Of a DNA stretch of 64,000 bases, positions 10,322 through 57,592 are shown piece after piece (the stretch's first letter is position 1; each line of letters begins with the position of its first letter). The notes below the pieces were generated by a model that worked only from the letters and a program-made list of their open reading frames with translations, was not told the DNA's origin and searched no databases. The DNA lies in the sequence record PV660463. One strand, given 5' to 3'. The translations under genes were made by a program, and so were the position numbers. Source of the stretch: Escherichia phage LF82-41.

Positions 10322-10350
10322 TGCTTTAACGTTAAAATACATAACCTTAT

Positions 10351-10368
10351 GGGAGACTTCGGTCTCCC
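10351..10368. terminator. rho-independent terminator, bidirectional (gene 23 / minus ORF)
   Basis: GGGAGAC-TTCG-GTCTCCC followed by ATTTTTGGTTTT. Confidence 0.75.
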
Positions 10369-10378
10369 ATTTTTGGTT

Positions 10379-10748: not shown

Positions 10749-12032
10749 ATGAGTAAAATCCAAAAATTATTGCGTGAATCTACAACGTCTACTAGCAACT
10801 CAATCGGTCGCCCAAATCTCGTTGCTTTGACTCGCGCTACGACTAAATTAATATATTCTGACATTGTGGCAACACAAAGAACTAATCAACCTGTTGCTGC
10901 TTTTTATGGTATTAAATATCTTAACCCAGACAACGAATTAACATTTAAAACTGGTGCTACTTATGCAGGCGAAGCTGGATATGTAGACCGAGAAAAAATT
11001 ACCGAGCTCACAGAAGAATCAAAAGCCACACTAAATAAAGGTGATTTTTTCAAATATAATAATATAGTCTATAAAGTGTTAGAAGATACACCGTTTGCAG
11101 ATATTCAGGAAAGTGATCTAGAATTAGCTCTTCAGATTGCGGTCGTTCATTTAAAGGTACGGTTATTTTCAGATGCAGCGGTAACAAGCAAATTTGAAAG
11201 CTCTGGTAGCGAAATTTCTGATGCAAGATTCCAGATTAATAAATGGCAAACTTCAGTCAAATCTCGTAAACTTAAAACCGGTCTCACGGTTGAATTAGCG
11301 CAAGATTTAGAAGCGAATGGATTTGATGCCCCTAACTTCTTAGAAGATTTGCTTGCTACTGAAATGGCTGATGAAATTAATAAAGATATTCTTCAGTCTT
11401 TAATTACTGTATCGAAACGTTATAAAGTTACTGGAATTACTGACACTGGATTTATTGACTTGAGCTATGCGTCTGCTCCGGAAGCAGGTCGTTCGTTATA
11501 TCGAATGGTGTGTGAAATGGTATCACACATTCAAAAAGAGTCAACTTATACTGCAACGTTTTGCGTAGCTTCAGCTCGTGCAGCTGCTATTCTTGCTGCT
11601 TCGGGTTGGTTAAAACATAAGCCGGAAGATGATAAGTATCTTTCACAAAATGCTTATGGATTCTTGGCAAATGGATTACCTCTTTACTGCGATACCAACA
11701 GTCCGTTAGATTATGTTATTGTGGGTGTTGTAGAAAATATCGGCGAAAAAGAGATTGTAGGGTCCATCTTTTATGCTCCATACACTGAAGGAATGGATTT
11801 AGACGACCCGGAACATGTCGGTGCATTTAAAGTTGTAGTTGACCCAGAAAGCTTGCAACCGTCTATCGGTTTATTGGTTAGATATGCTTTATCAGCAAAT
11901 CCTTACACAGTAGCAAAAGATGAAAAAGAAGCGAGAGTAATTGATGGCGGGGACATGGATAAAATGGCAGGACGTTCGGACTTGTCTGTTTTACTCGGTG
12001 TTAAATTGCCTAAAATTATTATAGATGAATAA
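10749..12032 (+). CDS. 24: capsid vertex protein (gp24-like)
   Basis: 427 aa as in T4 gp24; late promoter upstream. Confidence 0.9.
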   Translation: MSKIQKLLRESTTSTSNSIGRPNLVALTRATTKLIYSDIVATQRTNQPVAAFYGIKYLNPDNELTFKTGATYAGEAGYVDREKITELTEESKATLNKGDFFKYNNIVYKVLEDTPFADIQESDLELALQIAVVHLKVRLFSDAAVTSKFESSGSEISDARFQINKWQTSVKSRKLKTGLTVELAQDLEANGFDAPNFLEDLLATEMADEINKDILQSLITVSKRYKVTGITDTGFIDLSYASAPEAGRSLYRMVCEMVSHIQKESTYTATFCVASARAAAILAASGWLKHKPEDDKYLSQNAYGFLANGLPLYCDTNSPLDYVIVGVVENIGEKEIVGSIFYAPYTEGMDLDDPEHVGAFKVVVDPESLQPSIGLLVRYALSANPYTVAKDEKEARVIDGGDMDKMAGRSDLSVLLGVKLPKIIIDE

Positions 12033-13733: not shown

Positions 13734-14864
13734 TTATGGATATGTATAGATGATACCAGTTTCCAAAGCAGTTTTATGGATGATGTATCCATTACGTGAT
13801 TCTTGAACATCAACTTCTGGATAGTCTTCCATCATCTTCTGAAGAGTGTAACGATGCAGGTAGTATTTACTATCTGGATCTTCAGTTTTCCAATCTTTAC
13901 CTTCTTCAGTCATTTTTTGGATTTCATCCATAACCCACCAACCGCACCAGATGTAAGCTGAAGTACGATGTGGAAGAGGATGAACATAAGGTAATTCACC
14001 TTCTGGTTCTGGAGCAACTTTATCGGTTACCTGAACTTGACCTTCTGCTGTAATAGTTTTGCTATCATAATCAGTAGCAGTAACAGTGGCAGTAACTTCA
14101 ATAGTTTGACTTCCAACAGATGAAGTATCAACTGTATATACATTAGTTGACCCTTCTACAGGAGAAGAATCTTTCTTCCATGAATATTCAATTTGCGCTT
14201 CTTCTGGGGCATCAGTGACATTAGCGGTAAATGTAGCTGAAGCATCTTGCTGAACGTTAATAGAAGGAGGAGTCAATGTAACCTGTGGATTCATTGTCTT
14301 CTTATTAACTGTTAATGACACTTCATTAGAAGTAACTTCCTTTGCATCATAATCTGTCGCAGTTACTTGGGCTACACATTTAATTCTTTTTACACCACTT
14401 GTAGTTGGAGTATAGCTAAATGTAGAGTTAGTTTCTCCACCAACTTGTGAATCATCTACATACCACTGATACGTAGCAGACGCTCCAACCGGTTGAGAAG
14501 CTAAGGCAGCAGTAAATTGAACCGTGGTTCCAATTACTCCAGCTGAAGGACTATTGGGAGTTACTGCCAAAGTAGTTGACTGAGTTTTATTTTTAACTGT
14601 GATAGTTGCAGTAGTTTCTGCTGTTTCAGCTTCAGCTTCTGGAACTGTATTTGTTGCAACTACTTTAATAGTCTTTTGACCGGCAGGTCCTTTTAGTACA
14701 TAACTAAAAGTTGCTTCAGCTCCATCTTGTGGAACATCATCCACAGTCCAAGCATATGTAATAGTTCCACCTTCAGCCTGACCACTAGGCGTGGCAGTAA
14801 ACTGCTTAGTCTCATCTATAACTCCAGTAGGTGTTTTAGGAGTTATATCAACTGTAAAAGCCAT
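13734..14864 (-). CDS. hoc: Hoc head outer capsid protein with Ig-like repeats
   Basis: 376 aa; repetitive Thr/Val-rich Ig-like domains; T4 Hoc-like N-terminus and position. Confidence 0.85.
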   Translation of the reverse strand: MAFTVDITPKTPTGVIDETKQFTATPSGQAEGGTITYAWTVDDVPQDGAEATFSYVLKGPAGQKTIKVVATNTVPEAEAETAETTATITVKNKTQSTTLAVTPNSPSAGVIGTTVQFTAALASQPVGASATYQWYVDDSQVGGETNSTFSYTPTTSGVKRIKCVAQVTATDYDAKEVTSNEVSLTVNKKTMNPQVTLTPPSINVQQDASATFTANVTDAPEEAQIEYSWKKDSSPVEGSTNVYTVDTSSVGSQTIEVTATVTATDYDSKTITAEGQVQVTDKVAPEPEGELPYVHPLPHRTSAYIWCGWWVMDEIQKMTEEGKDWKTEDPDSKYYLHRYTLQKMMEDYPEVDVQESRNGYIIHKTALETGIIYTYP

Positions 14865-26407: not shown

Positions 26408-26414
26408 GAAAAAA

Positions 26415-26431
26415 GGGAGACGTTGTCTCCC
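26415..26431. terminator. bidirectional terminator between gene 54 and alt.-1
   Basis: GGGAGAC-gtt-GTCTCCC followed by TTTAGGGGTTTATTT. Confidence 0.6.
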
Positions 26432-26440
26432 TTTAGGGGT

Positions 26441-26734: not shown

Positions 26735-26763
26735 AACGTTTTCCTCATGTTGTTGATGGGATG

Positions 26764-26793
26764 ATAGTATCACACATCCATGTGCTTGTAAAC
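26764..26793 (-). promoter_or_regulatory. early promoter GTTTAC-N18-TACTAT between alt and alt.-1
   Basis: Same architecture and conserved leader as other cassette copies. Confidence 0.55.
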
Positions 26794-32591: not shown

Positions 32592-32622
32592 ATTATACTC
32601 TAATCCGTCCTTGGATGTAAAC
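32592..32622 (-). promoter_or_regulatory. early-promoter-like GTTTAC-N19-TATAAT
   Basis: Perfect hexamers but 19-nt spacer; upstream of ORF 32370-32567. Confidence 0.35.
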
Positions 32623-33236
32623 TACTTAATGAAATTAATTTCTACCGGATGAACAACAGGTTGAGCAGTGATATATTGAGTAATTGCTTTCATGACTAGA
32701 GCTTCAGAGCCAGGATTTTTCTCAACGAATTCACGTGCTTGGTTATGAGCTTCAAGTTCACTTAGTAAACCACTTCGTTGACATCCACGGTCTTGAGTAC
32801 CCTGTTCAGATAAAAAGGCGACGATGTATTTTTCATCGTCATAAGGTTTAGGCAGTTGAGCAAATGTTCCTTTACTTCCAAAAGGAGAGTTATGACGCCA
32901 CATCACGCCGTGAGGAGTTTCAACCTTCGTATATTCGTGTGGGCCATTTTTCTTAGTTTCTTGATGTGGAACTTCGTAGACCTTAGGGTTAGGACATTCA
33001 ATAAAATGCTCATCTAAATCAGTCGAGAATATTAAAGTAAAACAATTACTGAATTTACCAACACCTGCCTGATAAATTTTACCTTCAGAAGTTCTAATTT
33101 CACAAACTGAGCCAGCATCAGTAACTTCTAAAACTTCAAAAGGCTCGATAAGGTCATATGAGAACATGTTTTTAAGGCGTGGAGTAATATCCCCATTTTT
33201 AAAATTCATTTTATAAAAAGTATTAACTTTAAACAT
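32622..33236 (-). CDS. hypothetical protein, 204 aa
   Basis: ORF-track ORF; ATG with GAGGA RBS. Confidence 0.6.
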   Translation of the reverse strand: MFKVNTFYKMNFKNGDITPRLKNMFSYDLIEPFEVLEVTDAGSVCEIRTSEGKIYQAGVGKFSNCFTLIFSTDLDEHFIECPNPKVYEVPHQETKKNGPHEYTKVETPHGVMWRHNSPFGSKGTFAQLPKPYDDEKYIVAFLSEQGTQDRGCQRSGLLSELEAHNQAREFVEKNPGSEALVMKAITQYITAQPVVHPVEINFIK

Positions 33237-33272: not shown

Positions 33273-33638
33273 TTAGATATCAAATTCGTTAAGAACTACA
33301 TCAAAGATTGCTTCGAGATGTTCAGGTTTAGCTCGGTTACTCAGGATATGACGAATCCAAGTTTTAACCAGAAGTTTACGATTAACACCATTCCAGCAAG
33401 GATGAGTACCTAAATCACGCTGACGGAAATCATCATCTAATGCAATTTTAAAATTTGAACCTTCCATCGTGATTGAAACCGTGATGCCATTTTCAAATCG
33501 CATATAAACGTAATTAGGAGTCATGCACTGTTCGATTTCACATACTGAACCATTTTTATGTTTCCATAAGCAAATAACTTCAGAAGAACCAGCGATACCG
33601 TTAGAAACATATTTGCGTTCGAAGTTGATGTAGTTCAT
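33273..33638 (-). CDS. hypothetical protein (30.7 position)
   Basis: ORF-track ORF 121 aa; ATG start. Confidence 0.6.
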   Translation of the reverse strand: MNYINFERKYVSNGIAGSSEVICLWKHKNGSVCEIEQCMTPNYVYMRFENGITVSITMEGSNFKIALDDDFRQRDLGTHPCWNGVNRKLLVKTWIRHILSNRAKPEHLEAIFDVVLNEFDI

Positions 33639-33668
33639 TTTATTCTCCAGATGTTTAAGTTGTTTATT

Positions 33669-33699
33669 GGTACAGGTCTATAATAACATAACCTGTACC
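33669..33699. repeat. perfect 9-bp inverted repeat with 13-nt loop
   Basis: GGTACAGGT...ACCTGTACC; loop holds the -10 hexamer of an early promoter. Confidence 0.8.
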
Positions 33700-33708
33700 A
33701 AAGTAAAC
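33680..33708 (-). promoter_or_regulatory. early promoter GTTTAC-N17-TATTAT
   Basis: -10 lies in the loop of a perfect 9-bp inverted repeat (33669-33699). Confidence 0.5.
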
Positions 33709-33712
33709 TGTT

Positions 33713-34081
33713 TTATGCAACTTTAATCCAATTGTCTAAATTTAAAACACCTTTGGCTTTCATTTTTTCGATCAGGTTATCTGCTGTAATGCGTCCATTT
33801 TGATACCATGTAACATCTTCAGAGTAACCAGTTTCTTCGTCAACATATGTTTCTGAACGAATTTTACCGGTAATAATAGTTTTTAATTCGTACGTGTCAC
33901 CTGTGAAAAAGTTTGCTAACACAATTTTCCAAGAGAAATCATCAGAAGGACCTTCAGGGGTCATACAACCTACGAACTCAAATTGCTCTTTGTATAACAT
34001 CCACTGGAATTCTTTAATTTCGATAGCTTTATAACCGTCGTGGTCTTTACATTTGATGTATGAGTTCAGATTGATTTTCAT
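33713..34081 (-). CDS. hypothetical protein (30.8 position)
   Basis: ORF-track ORF 122 aa; early promoter and CGGAGA RBS upstream. Confidence 0.6.
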   Translation of the reverse strand: MKINLNSYIKCKDHDGYKAIEIKEFQWMLYKEQFEFVGCMTPEGPSDDFSWKIVLANFFTGDTYELKTIITGKIRSETYVDEETGYSEDVTWYQNGRITADNLIEKMKAKGVLNLDNWIKVA

Positions 34082-34122
34082 TTTATTCTCCGGTTGTTTT
34101 ATTGATTAGGTGGTACAAGTCT

Positions 34123-34151
34123 ATAGTAACACATCCTACAGGAGAGTAAAC
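34123..34151 (-). promoter_or_regulatory. early promoter GTTTAC-N17-TACTAT
   Basis: Cassette copy upstream of ORF 33713-34081. Confidence 0.55.
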
Positions 34152-34188
34152 ATCTTTTTTAAACTTTTTCTGCCCTAAACGCACAAAA

Positions 34189-34206
34189 GGGAGACCGAAG
34201 TCTCCC
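34189..34206 (-). terminator. rho-independent terminator after small basic ORF
   Basis: Minus-strand GGGAGAC-UUCG-GUCUCCC followed by UUUUG. Confidence 0.65.
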
Positions 34207-34211
34207 TAAAA

Positions 34212-34391: not shown

Positions 34392-34554
34392 TATAAATTC
34401 TCTTTAAATGAAAATGCAGGACTTATTGACATTGCCTGCGCAAGCCCTCAAGGGGAACATAGGTTTTGGGTATTTAACGACAGGATAACCATAAACCCGT
34501 CATCATACCTACCATGACTTACACAGCTAACCTTTTGCTGACGCATGATAGCAA

Positions 34555-37546: not shown

Positions 37547-37575
37547 TTCGATTTCCTCATTGTGTTGGTAGAGTT

Positions 37576-37605
37576 ATAGTATCACAACTCCACCATGTTG
37601 TAAAC
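37576..37605 (-). promoter_or_regulatory. early promoter GTTTAC-N18-TACTAT
   Basis: Cassette copy upstream of ORF 37310-37546. Confidence 0.55.
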
Positions 37606-38287: not shown

Positions 38288-39373
<1,086 letters not shown>

Positions 39374-39374
<1 letters not shown>

Positions 39375-39673
39375 TATTTTATTCCTAAGAAAATTTCAAG
39401 AATACGAATGTTATGCTCGCGCCGGTCTTTATTAATTTCAGCAACGTTTTTATTAATTGACGTACTTCTAACGTTTGAAGAAATAAATTTAATCATATGA
39501 CTTTTGAGTTGTTGCAAATCCATCCCTTTTTCTTTAGCAGCTTTACGAAGAGCTTTACCTGCTTCATCTAGTGCCTTTGCTGCATCTTTGTCATAATTGC
39601 CAAGTGACATTCCACGACAGATATCAATATACTCATCAGACCGTTTGATGTAATTCTCTAGTAATGTTTTCAT
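39374..39673 (-). CDS. hypothetical protein, 99 aa
   Basis: ORF-track ORF; ATG with GAGG RBS and early promoter upstream. Confidence 0.55.
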
Positions 39674-39701
39674 TTAGATTTCCTCAATTATCCATAGGAG
39701 C

Positions 39702-39731
39702 ATTATAATCTGCTCCTGAGAGTTTGTAAAC
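39702..39731 (-). promoter_or_regulatory. early promoter GTTTAC-N18-TATAAT
   Basis: -10 overlaps loop of a 6-bp inverted repeat (39697-39716); upstream of ORF 39374-39673. Confidence 0.5.
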
Positions 39732-40589: not shown

Positions 40590-41077
40590 GTTTGAATAAT
40601 CTCAATGATTTCGTCTCGGGATAATCCATTGATAAGAACTGTTTTAGGCCCATCAGTTTGGATTTTGTAGGTCTCAAACATTACACACAACTCTTCTGCT
40701 GTATGATATGGACTTGAAATTCCGAGACGGTTGAATTTGTCGGTAAGAGGGTCGCAAATGATGTAGAATTTTATACCTGCGATATGTACATTTGGTTGAC
40801 TAATATTAATGAACACATTAGCGTCATATTTAGTTAAATTGTTTTGAAGAAATTCTACCATAGCATTAACTGCTTCTGGCATCGCTTCGCGTTTCTCTTC
40901 AGCGTATCGGGTTGAATACTCTTTTTGCTTTAACTTCTTTTTAGCATTTTTCGCTAGAGTAGTACGAAGGTCCGTAAGATAACCAACTGGACGGCCTTTC
41001 TTAAAGACCCGGATTCCATCTGTAGAATCACCAAATGCTGCCACAACCATATCGTTAGTAATCAATTGCATATTCAT
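40577..41077 (-). CDS. alc: Alc-like protein (inhibitor of host transcription)
   Basis: ATG at 41077 with GAGGAG RBS gives ~166 aa (T4 Alc 167 aa); position between spanins and rnlA; track ORF starts 21 codons earlier. Confidence 0.65.
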   Translation of the reverse strand: MNMQLITNDMVVAAFGDSTDGIRVFKKGRPVGYLTDLRTTLAKNAKKKLKQKEYSTRYAEEKREAMPEAVNAMVEFLQNNLTKYDANVFINISQPNVHIAGIKFYIICDPLTDKFNRLGISSPYHTAEELCVMFETYKIQTDGPKTVLINGLSRDEIIEIIQTCLK

Positions 41078-41107
41078 AATTTTCTCCTCGTGTTGTTGAT
41101 AAAACCC

Positions 41108-41137
41108 ATAGTAACACCATCCTTGGTGTTTGTAAAC
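41108..41137 (-). promoter_or_regulatory. early promoter GTTTAC-N18-TACTAT upstream of alc
   Basis: Cassette copy followed by GAGGAG RBS and alc ATG. Confidence 0.55.
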
Positions 41138-42273: not shown

Positions 42274-42319
42274 TCAGTTAGTTTTTTTAAATTATACCAC
42301 AATCCTTGTGGTGTGTAAA

Positions 42320-42730
42320 CTACTTTTTCTTATGTTGGATATTCCAAGGCGGGTTGAACTTTTTGATAAAAAGCGGTTCTTCAAGGTCCATTGTTGCGAT
42401 GGTCATTGAACCAAGTTCGTTGGTGACTGAAAGGTCAAAACATTGGCGGGCCCAGAATTCAACCTTTTTGCCTTGCATTAAGGCATCCAAAATCATAAGT
42501 GATTTTCTTGAATCTGAAGTCTGGTCTTTTCGATTTATGGCTGTTCGATAATAGTTAATGCGTTTCTTTAAATTCTTGGTTTTACCAATATACACAAGTT
42601 CGTCATCTATAGCAATAGCGTATATGACATTTTTCTTATTAGGGACATCAACTGTTTTAATTGTTGCATCTTCTAATAGCTCCAATTCTGTATATTTAAT
42701 AAAGGAATATTCGGCGGCAATATCTTTCAT
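42320..42730 (-). CDS. denA: endonuclease II (GIY-YIG family)
   Basis: 136 aa; IYAIAIDDELVYIGKT motif; matches T4 EndoII length and termini. Confidence 0.85.
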   Translation of the reverse strand: MKDIAAEYSFIKYTELELLEDATIKTVDVPNKKNVIYAIAIDDELVYIGKTKNLKKRINYYRTAINRKDQTSDSRKSLMILDALMQGKKVEFWARQCFDLSVTNELGSMTIATMDLEEPLFIKKFNPPWNIQHKKK

Positions 42731-48738: not shown

Positions 48739-48766
48739 TGATAGGGCTACTATAACATAGCCCTAT
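48739..48766. repeat. perfect 10-bp inverted repeat with 8-nt loop
   Basis: GATAGGGCTA-ctataaca-TAGCCCTATC in intergenic region; loop resembles an extended -10. Confidence 0.8.
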
Positions 48767-48777
48767 CTGATTGTACA

Positions 48778-49164
48778 CTACTTTTTAAAAGTTTTTTGCA
48801 AAAGTTTGATGATTTCGTCGACGTTGGTTTCATCTACAATACAATGGATTTTTGTTACACCTAAAGTTATACCTTCGTTAGTAGATTGTGGCTTTTCTAA
48901 AGTTACCTCAGTAAAGTATTTGAATTCTTCAGAGTAAATCTCAAAATACGTCTCAAGTGGGCCACCAGCCATGTATTCAGTGCCGTCTTCCATAGTTACA
49001 CGTACCACACAGTCACCAGCACAATCATCACTTTCCATTTCATCTACAACAAAACTAGGTCCGTGCTTCTCTATTAAATTTAGCATCATTACATTGCAAC
49101 GGCACTCGTTAGCAAAGTCATCTTTAAATAAAGGGTTAATGATATAAGATTTTCCGATTTCCAT
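48778..49164 (-). CDS. hypothetical protein, 128 aa
   Basis: ORF-track ORF; ATG with GAGG RBS downstream of early promoter cassette. Confidence 0.6.
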   Translation of the reverse strand: MEIGKSYIINPLFKDDFANECRCNVMMLNLIEKHGPSFVVDEMESDDCAGDCVVRVTMEDGTEYMAGGPLETYFEIYSEEFKYFTEVTLEKPQSTNEGITLGVTKIHCIVDETNVDEIIKLLQKTFKK

Positions 49165-49193
49165 TTTGATTTCCTCATGTTGTTGATAAGTCT

Positions 49194-49222
49194 ATACTAA
49201 CACATCCAGGGAAGAAGTAAAC
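49194..49222 (-). promoter_or_regulatory. early promoter GTTTAC-N17-TAGTAT
   Basis: Cassette copy between gene 32 and ORF 48778-49164. Confidence 0.55.
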
Positions 49223-49253
49223 AACTTTTTCAGCAATTTACAGATACTCAAAA

Positions 49254-49271
49254 GGGAGACCGAAGTCTCCC
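49254..49271 (-). terminator. rho-independent terminator after gene 32
   Basis: Minus-strand GGGAGAC-UUCG-GUCUCCC followed by UUUUGAG. Confidence 0.65.
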
Positions 49272-49277
49272 AATTTA

Positions 49278-57574: not shown

Positions 57575-57592
57575 GGGAGACTTCGGTCTCCC
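57575..57592 (+). terminator. rho-independent terminator after gene 35
   Basis: GGGAGAC-TTCG-GTCTCCC followed by ATTTTTG. Confidence 0.75.

Follow-up and report, generated by a model that had tools for sequence, protein, structure and literature searches.

Promoter-early stem-loop (PeSL) cassettes were described in the T4-type phages phi1 and RB49 as sigma-70-like early promoters that are preceded by AT-rich sequence and accompanied by a stem-loop. Reporter constructs revealed promoter as well as terminator/attenuator activity, and the cassettes were implicated in the shuffling of small ORFs as modules (Arbiol et al, 2010; PMC2839356). Later, T4/PST and KVP40/nt-1 were added to the class, with TTTACW-N17-TAYWAT as the T-even consensus (Comeau et al, 2014; PMC4122927). 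Five positional subclasses are distinguished, and a stem-loop that overlaps the -10 box, or one placed "between -35 and -10", is listed as the commonest position.

Here, we analyse a 64,000-nucleotide stretch of Escherichia phage LF82-41 (PV660463; hereafter, the window), in which a stem-loop encloses the -10 element of an early promoter at 33.7 kb (site P3) and of further early promoters (P6, P7, and P9). Both the class and, in effect, its occurrence at the P3 locus are on record: the annotation of OL960576, a phage with 97% identity, gives the site as a "rho-independent terminator" that overlaps a "T4 early promoter".

Promoters are also placed inside hairpins in T4 e, soc, 49, and I-TevI, where the hairpins act as translational gates (reviewed in PMC3014915). 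These gates share with the window sites a promoter within the structure-coding sequence and a 5′ arm upstream of the start site, such that only read-through RNA folds. However, they contain late promoters and sequester the Shine-Dalgarno sequence or the AUG, whereas the window sites contain early promoters and leave the Shine-Dalgarno sequence outside the hairpin, with equal predicted accessibility. With Rho-independent terminators, the window sites have in common a stable sense-strand RNA hairpin directly after a stop codon, but they differ by the missing U-tract, by loops of 8-13 nt, and by the overlap with a promoter. REP-type intercistronic mRNA stabilisers of E. coli operons are barriers to 3′-exonucleases that lie between cistrons and lack a U-tract. 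The window hairpins could likewise protect the upstream RNA segment, a putative function; in contrast to REP elements, they are interleaved with promoters and do not form a dispersed identical repeat.

Anatomy of the P3 site

The 4 kb flanking P3 are 97-98% identical to RB69-like Mosigvirus coliphages (phiEC1, LF82-x, SA79RD), and the window is assigned to this T4-like group. It starts with the small terminase gene and contains, on the minus strand at ~26.4-52.5 kb, an early-gene block that comprises alt, ligase, 30.x, rIII, 31, cd, and pseT as well as alc, rnlA, denA, nrdAB, td, frd, and 32, up to rnh. Within this block, P3 occupies the 74-nt gap between the homologues of gp30.8 (upstream) and gp30.7 (downstream).

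An earlier interpretation of this DNA made from the letters alone (hereafter, the sequence-only reading) had noted a perfect 9-bp inverted repeat at 33669-33699, with the -10 TATTAT of the early promoter for ORF 33273-33638 in its loop. The repeat is real, GGTACAGGT (33669-33677) being perfectly complementary to ACCTGTACC (33691-33699), and it is longer, extending over 33667-33701. The perfect 11-bp stem is formed by TTGGTACAGGT (33667-33677) and ACCTGTACCAA (33691-33701), closes a 13-nt loop, and gives a hairpin with a dG of -20.7 kcal/mol (Table 1). Along the minus strand, the gp30.8 stop codon TAA is followed after 5 nt by the -35 element GTTTAC, a 17-nt spacer that includes the 5′ arm, the extended -10 TG-T-TATTAT in the loop, the 3′ arm, an A-rich leader, GGAG, and ATG. 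This promoter anatomy bears out the placement of the -10 in the loop. Judged by these elements, P3 is a T4-type early promoter for the gp30.7 homologue, with predicted promoter activity. There is no sign that RNA polymerase is denied access to the -10, as the term "sequestered" in the sequence-only reading had implied. The tail after the 3′ arm is A-rich (AUAAACAAC) and lacks a U-tract. A candidate antisense promoter on the plus strand, with TATAAT in the P3 loop, was rejected, as no acceptable -35 is found at a distance of 16-18 nt.

The features by which PeSL cassettes are defined recur at P3 and in the window. P3 contains a -35, a spacer within the 16-18 nt range, a -10, a Shine-Dalgarno sequence, and a start codon, fits TTTACW-N17-TAYWAT, and encloses its -10 in the 11-bp stem. 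In all ten window promoters, the 8 bases preceding the -35 hexamer TTTACN are A-rich (AAAAGTAG, TAAAATAG, TAAAACAG, and similar), which corresponds to the A-rich upstream region of the class. Moreover, the element is present in multiple copies, with ~10 cassettes associated with small non-essential early ORFs, and P3, P9, and P7 lie at junctions marked by insertion, deletion, or replacement. By all of these sequence-level features, the window sites belong to the PeSL class. As in the published cassettes, an early promoter is combined with a stem-loop and a downstream Shine-Dalgarno/ATG, in many copies and in association with junctions. There are also differences. The PST/T4 set has its stem-loops "just upstream" of the promoter, and the -10-in-loop subclass is illustrated in phi1/RB49 with polyG/polyC stems, whereas the window stems are of mixed sequence and lack U-tracts. 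Further, cross-genus covariation and a sense-strand G·U bias go unmentioned in the parts of the PeSL papers drawn on here.

Table 1. Positions of the nested early promoters, their elements, and the genes flanking P3 in the window.
Feature	Position	Strand	Remarks
gp30.8 homologue	33713-34081	minus	Pfam PF06019
P3 -35 GTTTAC	33703-33708 (hexamer TTTACT 33702-33707)	minus	equivalent OL960576 site annotated as T4 early promoter
P3 5′ arm	33691-33701	minus	UUGGUACAGGU in transcript; inside promoter spacer, upstream of start site
P3 13-nt loop with extended -10 TG-T-TATTAT	33678-33690 (-10: 33680-33685)	minus	
P3 3′ arm	33667-33677	minus	ACCUGUACCAA; spans predicted transcription start; no terminator call
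P3 GGAG Shine-Dalgarno (33645-33648) and gp30.7 ATG (33636-33638)	33636-33648	minus	outside hairpin
gp30.7 homologue	33273-33638	minus	Pfam PF06919
P6 early promoter, cd.2 homologue	37567-37605 (-35: 37600-37605)	minus	orthologue named early promoter Pe133295 in the T4 GenBank record
P7 early promoter	39696-39731 (-35: 39726-39731)	minus	7-bp stem AGGAGCA / UGCUCCU
alc promoter spacer hairpin	41114-41129	minus	wholly in spacer
P8 early promoter for rnlA	42291-42320	minus	7-bp hairpin ACCACAA-gga-UUGUGGU (42296-42312) wholly in spacer
P9 early promoter, frd.1/DUF5417 homologue	48740-48778 (-35 GTGTAC: 48773-48778)	minus	stem GAUAGGGCUA / UAGCCCUAUC

Recurrence of nested promoters in the early region

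About ten related promoter cassettes, all on the minus strand, are distributed over the 26-kb early region (26.4-52.5 kb). Four of them have the -10 within the hairpin loop (at 33.7, 37.6, 39.7, and 48.7 kb), while two further early promoters, those of rnlA and alc, have a hairpin within the spacer. P8, the rnlA promoter, represents the cassette variant that has its stem-loop between -35 and -10. P3 and P4 have TATAGACyTGTACCA and GGAGAATAAAATG in common. A GGAG Shine-Dalgarno sequence is present at three of the sites; GGAG is the target motif of RegB.

Two of these sites had been listed alongside P3 in the sequence-only reading. The one at 39697-39716 (P7) exists and encloses the -10; its stem is one base pair longer (7 bp), with arms at 39696-39702 and 39711-39717, and the -10 TATAAT (39702-39707) lies in the loop and runs one base into the 3′ arm. 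The other (P9), placed at 48739-48766, also exists with an enclosed -10, but its coordinates were off by one (48740-48767). Here, GATAGGGCTA and TAGCCCTATC (48740-48749 and 48758-48767) pair over 10 bp, or 11 bp with a G·U, around the -10 TATAGT (48749-48754). P6 was absent from that list, as were both spacer hairpins. The P6 stem, GGUGGAGUU / AACUCUACC (37586-37594 / 37567-37575), comprises 9 bp including one G·U, which is A-U in T4, and the -10 TACTAT (37576-37581) lies in the loop.

The hairpins were compared with chance expectation by RNA folding of the whole intergenic gaps, the check suggested by the sequence-only reading, against 200 dinucleotide shuffles. P3 (z = -3.83), P6 (z = -3.77), and P9 (z = -5.08) came out clearly, with 0/200 shuffles as good in each case, while P7 is marginal (z = -1.97; 9/200 shuffles as good). 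P8 is weak when taken alone (z = -1.36), and the spacer hairpins are not significant individually. The claim that the recurrence exceeds chance holds: in 3/10 predicted early promoters, the -10 hexamer lies wholly within a perfect hairpin of at least 7 bp, compared with a background of 2.9% (binomial P = 0.0026). Further, the window contains 11 perfect stems of at least 9 bp versus 4.8 ± 1.5 in shuffles. A scan of the whole window with Rfam covariance models gave no match at the gathering score.

Conservation of the layout and turnover of the stem

In close relatives, promoter and hairpin form a conserved island, and both flanks are variable. Upstream of gp30.7 homologues, the GGTACAGG stem occurs in Mosigvirus, Tequatrovirus (including T4), and Dhakavirus. 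In T4 itself, GGTACAGG...CCTGTACC pairs over 8 bp upstream of gene 30.7, with TATTAT in the loop. At the same site, the stem is formed by TTGGTGTAGGAGTA / TACTCTTACACCAA in Marfa, by GCTGATTGAGTGT / ACACTCAATCAGC in EcS1 (a perfect 13-bp stem), by GGTGAGGGTCT / AGACTCTCACC in L044, and by TGGGTGGT.CTGGGT and its partner in Roth79; in these genomes, the -10 is always located in the loop or the 3′ arm. The frd.1/DUF5417 site (P9) keeps the same layout while its stem sequence turns over, with ~25 distinct sequences in IMG/VR. The 30.7 and frd.1 layouts are thus kept in at least five genera with differing stem sequences. Some lineages (L059, L129, and Marfa 22100) have lost the 5′ arm.

Loss of stem complementarity in related phages had been named in advance as the observation that would speak against the element; complementarity is kept, with compensatory changes across genera. 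As the pairing register varies by lineage (i+j = 29-30, 35-36, or 39), a single consensus structure for all orthologues is impossible, and the formal pair count is consequently confined to one register group of 10 sequences. In this group, 90.7% of the cells are standard pairs in the common register, compared with 33-50% when the register is slid by 1-3 columns, and both-sided (compensatory) changes are found at 10/14 pairs. None of 500 shuffles reaches the observed values, a significance that is inflated, since the 10 sequences are related and not independent.

Strand bias of the stems

The pairing differs markedly between the two strands. Sense folds contain 73 G·U pairs versus 15 in antisense folds, and of 44 distinct stable hairpins, 38 fold better on the sense strand and one on the antisense strand. 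Moreover, the stems are unrelated between sites of one genome and between genera at one site. Since the non-Watson-Crick positions are nearly all G·U on the transcribed strand and the stems are unrelated between sites, we infer that the stem is selected at the RNA level, in sense-strand read-through RNA and not as a DNA palindrome or cruciform. A cruciform or symmetric operator would not tolerate the weakening of one strand only, and the strand bias thus counts against both.

The promoter geometry indicates which RNA would fold. The predicted start, 6-8 nt past the -10, falls within the 3′ arm, and the 5′ arm lies upstream of it. Consequently, RNA initiated at the promoter would lack the hairpin, and only read-through RNA would form it, in line with the proposal of the sequence-only reading that the hairpins fold in read-through RNA at intercistronic junctions; the processing or stability role suggested there is putative.

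Strand-biased mutation could explain part of the G·U excess in these counts.

Coincidence with mosaic junctions

Three of the four -10-in-loop sites coincide with mosaic junctions. At P3, the gp30.7 homologue is 94% identical to that of T4 and the gp30.8 homologue 37%, while the relation is reversed toward Marfa (51% and 75%, respectively); nucleotide homology with T4 begins exactly at the G of the P3 GTTTAC. At P9, frd.1 is 81% and frd.2 43% identical to T4. Downstream of P7, two lineage-specific ORFs (39374-39673 and 39183-39374) are absent from the syntenic regions of T4, EcS1, Marfa, PG7, and Roth79. P6 shows no identity discontinuity. Further, two phages carry the same cassette, GGTGTAGGAG...CTCTTACACCAACAA, at different loci, one at the 30.7 site and the other at the frd.1 site.

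Proposed function of the embedded hairpin

We interpret the element as a PeSL-type cassette, in which a strong sigma-70-type early promoter is interleaved with a stem-loop, and in which the hairpin probably serves as a transcript-end or insulator element. The 5′ arm falls within the spacer and the -10 within the loop, and the 3′ arm straddles the transcription start; the predicted effect of the hairpin concerns the read-through RNA. Initiation at the embedded promoter would produce an RNA without the 5′ arm, with an unstructured leader and an accessible Shine-Dalgarno sequence. A polymerase arriving from the upstream gene, in turn, would copy both arms and generate a stable hairpin a few nucleotides past the upstream stop codon (5-15 nt at these sites), which probably marks and protects the 3′ end of the upstream cistron. 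It could do so by attenuating or pausing transcription, by blocking 3′-exonucleases once the RNA has been cleaved further downstream, or in both ways. Neighbouring early genes would thereby be insulated in gaps too short to hold a terminator of their own, and the conserved 60-70 bp cassette would provide a junction for recombinational gene shuffling.

The layout of early promoters was surveyed at 41 predicted promoters in six genomes, with one T4 promoter without a located upstream stop omitted. Where the -35 abuts the upstream stop codon, a compact embedded hairpin is present at 18/30 promoters (20/30 including those that reach the Shine-Dalgarno sequence). Promoters with a long gap have an embedded hairpin in 3/10 cases, and all ten have a stand-alone upstream hairpin, several with a U-tract. 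The complementary distribution of embedded and stand-alone hairpins is a trend, suggestive in strength, and fits the insulator reading.

Beyond the single cassette, a general design rule can be put forward as a tentative proposal with a limited chance of being correct: the spacer would supply the 5′ arm of an RNA structure formed on the sense strand, each early promoter would be associated with two RNA isoforms of different fate, and the stem-loops may be no terminators. In class A, with the 3′ arm at the start site, the read-through hairpin could be a processing, stability, or insulation signal. In class B, the 3′ arm is the Shine-Dalgarno sequence, and only RNA started at the gene's own early promoter would be translated. 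Class B examples are the alc promoter (window and T4), the alt.-3 and 30.8 promoters of T4, and the 30.7 promoter of Karamvirus and Gelderlandvirus. These early promoters of the window and its relatives resemble the T4 gates, and by analogy, class B would be for early genes what the gates e, 49, soc, and I-TevI are for late genes. Cross-genus covariation and the sense-strand G·U bias are compatible with the design rule. The literature searched contains no description of it, and the search returned nothing relevant on T4 Term-seq data or on anti-Shine-Dalgarno gating of early promoters.

The hairpin could instead be an efficient Rho-independent terminator superimposed on the promoter, which would halt nearly all transcription from upstream and make each gene a separate transcription unit. 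One phi1 stem-loop lowered lacZ about as much as rrnB T1 in the reporter data drawn on here (PMC2839356), WebGeSTer calls a terminator at the P3 site in OL960576, and the position just past the upstream stop codon would suit this role. However, a U-tract follows none of the -10-in-loop hairpins in the window or in the orthologues (tails AAUAAAC, CAAAUCAAAAG, AACAAGGAG), and a consensus terminator scan called none of the -10-in-loop sites, while it flagged the stand-alone GGGAGAC-UUCG-GUCUCCC-UUUU (49254-49271). Moreover, hairpins with a 7-11 bp stem and an 8-13 nt loop make poor terminators. Given the A-rich tails, the missing U-tract, and the lack of a terminator call, efficient intrinsic termination is doubtful and this reading unlikely; a canonical Rho-independent terminator was rejected, as the U-tract is missing.

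An element that acts at the DNA level, either as a palindromic operator controlling early promoters or as a cruciform or single-strand hairpin for recombination or promoter melting, is improbable. In its favour, the inverted repeat brackets the -10, both DNA strands are foldable (z = -4.4 and -4.7), and the GGTACAGG arms stay unchanged from T4 through Mosigvirus between variable flanks; in addition, PeSL recombination crossovers were mapped in or near the stem-loop in the published data drawn on here (PMC2839356). The stem turnover between sites and genera, in contrast, excludes a common sequence-specific binder, and wobbles are tolerated almost only on the sense strand, the antisense hairpins being systematically weaker. 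On these two grounds, the single protein-binding palindrome or cruciform that the sequence-only reading had offered as an alternative was rejected.

It is very improbable that the -10-in-loop sites are translational gates of the T4 e, soc, 49, and I-TevI type, in which read-through RNA would be untranslatable and promoter-initiated RNA translated. The architecture is the same, with the promoter inside the structure and the 5′ arm upstream of the start (PMC3014915). Further, the 30.7 spacer of Karamvirus and Gelderlandvirus pairs with the Shine-Dalgarno sequence (CUCCGUUGUAU / AUACAACGGAG, with a compensatory variant in L060), and predicted accessibility rises there from 0.23 in the read-through to 0.70 in the promoter-initiated RNA. 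At the four window sites, however, Shine-Dalgarno sequence and AUG lie 14-25 nt beyond the hairpin. The predicted unpaired probability from Shine-Dalgarno sequence to AUG, read-through versus promoter-initiated, is 0.64 versus 0.62 at P3, 0.62 versus 0.47 at P6, 0.57 versus 0.30 at P7, and 0.72 versus 0.81 at P9, and a gate was rejected for these sites on this predicted accessibility. Finally, functionless hairpins, left as by-products of cassette duplication or recombination or as chance matches in AT-rich spacers, are hardly credible: P7 and the spacer hairpins are weak individually, ~65 perfect stems of at least 7 bp are expected by chance in 64 kb, and the 5′ arm is lost in the three lineages named above, but the compensatory changes, the pairing that no shuffle matches, the layout at orthologous sites in at least five genera, and three sites with z-scores between -3.8 and -5.1 argue against them.

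Implications for T4-type early genes

To the known PeSL class, the present analysis adds evidence for RNA-level selection, consisting of compensatory changes in at least five genera and strand-specific G·U pairs. It further adds a -10-in-loop subclass that lacks terminator U-tracts and leaves the ribosome-binding site unmasked, and it locates three of the four window copies exactly at mosaic boundaries. PeSL cassettes are thought to be promoter/terminator units and also recombination junctions through which small accessory genes are shuffled between T4-like phages. If the hairpins control the fate of read-through RNA and not termination, the view of how T4-type early genes are insulated would be refined; if true, this would also help to design compact synthetic phage expression cassettes.

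Hairpins at early promoters and putative stand-alone terminators

The window contains at least five copies of an identical GGGAGAC/GUCUCCC stem, distributed over both strands and closed by a UUCG or CGAA loop at four sites and by GUU at 26412-26434. Since a U-tract often follows the stem, the hairpin looks from its sequence like a reused stand-alone terminator module. Quite different phages also have overlapping terminator/promoter units, located upstream of their DUF5417 (frd.1) homologues, where a GC-rich hairpin with a U-tract either carries the -35 in its loop or is followed immediately by the -10.

A further set of hairpins, 5-7 bp long, lies entirely within the promoter spacer, with the extended -10 (TGTGG or GTGAT) as the 3' arm. 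The 5' arm tracks the 3' arm in phages EcS1, Marfa, PG7 and Roth79, giving the covarying pairs CCACA/TGTGG and ATCAC/GTGAT. The rnlA copy in the window has a U-rich segment, UAUAAUUU, after the hairpin, and the -10 forms part of this segment.

Coordinates of hairpins and promoter elements in the window and in comparison loci
Feature	Source	Position
GGGAGAC/GUCUCCC stem	window	10349-10370; 26412-26434; 34188-34207; 49254-49271; 57575-57592
Terminator/promoter overlap at DUF5417	RB43-like contigs	L084-L091
Terminator/promoter overlap at DUF5417	~50-kb phage contigs	L103-L127
Spacer-internal hairpin	window	42296-42312 (rnlA); 41114-41129; 26735-26792
Spacer-internal hairpin	L027-L030	equivalent alt.-3 sites
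Near-identical cassettes	T4 (L026)	alc promoter, locus ~14277-14340; alt.-3 promoter, locus ~1034-1100
Shine-Dalgarno-complementary spacer	window	alc promoter 41069-41137; 30.8 promoter 34082-34211; 49165-49277
Shine-Dalgarno-complementary spacer	T4 (L026)	alc, alt.-3 and 30.8 promoters
Shine-Dalgarno-complementary spacer	PG7 (L029)	30.7 promoter

Possible rearrangement of promoter cassettes

In T4, the alc and alt.-3 promoter cassettes of ~50 nt each are near-identical, GTTTACAAGTCCCTCGTGTTGTGTTATAGTAGTCTTACT(G/A)ACATAACATGAGGA, and lie 13 kb apart, a similarity that duplication of the cassette or gene conversion could explain. The T4 GenBank entry (AF158101) further holds a misc_feature at 11301-11314 of the T4 locus (T4 133300-133313), described as the inverted complement of the earlier published sequence and as a correction to early promoter Pe133295. 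The T4 hairpin orthologous to that of P6, the early promoter of the cd.2 homologue in the window, has this segment in its loop region; the loop between the T4 inverted repeats either was mis-assembled in the past or genuinely flips.

For three small window ORFs (39374-39673, 39183-39374 and 32622-33236), the syntenic early regions of T4, EcS1, Marfa, PG7 and Roth79 contain no homologue. The first two lie immediately downstream of the hairpin-bearing early promoter P7, and together with it resemble an insertion cassette composed of a promoter-early stem-loop (PeSL) and ORFans.

Separately, the 163-nt intergenic stretch downstream of rIII (34392-34554) has a strong predicted fold (raw energy -39.9 kcal/mol) and matched no Rfam family.

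Predicted pairing of promoter spacers with the Shine-Dalgarno sequence

In some early promoters, the spacer is complementary to the downstream Shine-Dalgarno sequence, as in CUCCGUUGUAU/AUACAACGGAG, and comparison locus L060 carries a compensatory variant of this pairing. For such promoters, the predicted unpaired probability from the Shine-Dalgarno sequence to the AUG is 0.23-0.39 in read-through RNA versus 0.51-0.91 in promoter-initiated RNA. As modelled, this pairing would give early genes a counterpart of the T4 e, 49, soc and I-TevI gates, in which hairpins containing late promoters mask the Shine-Dalgarno sequence or AUG in read-through RNA.
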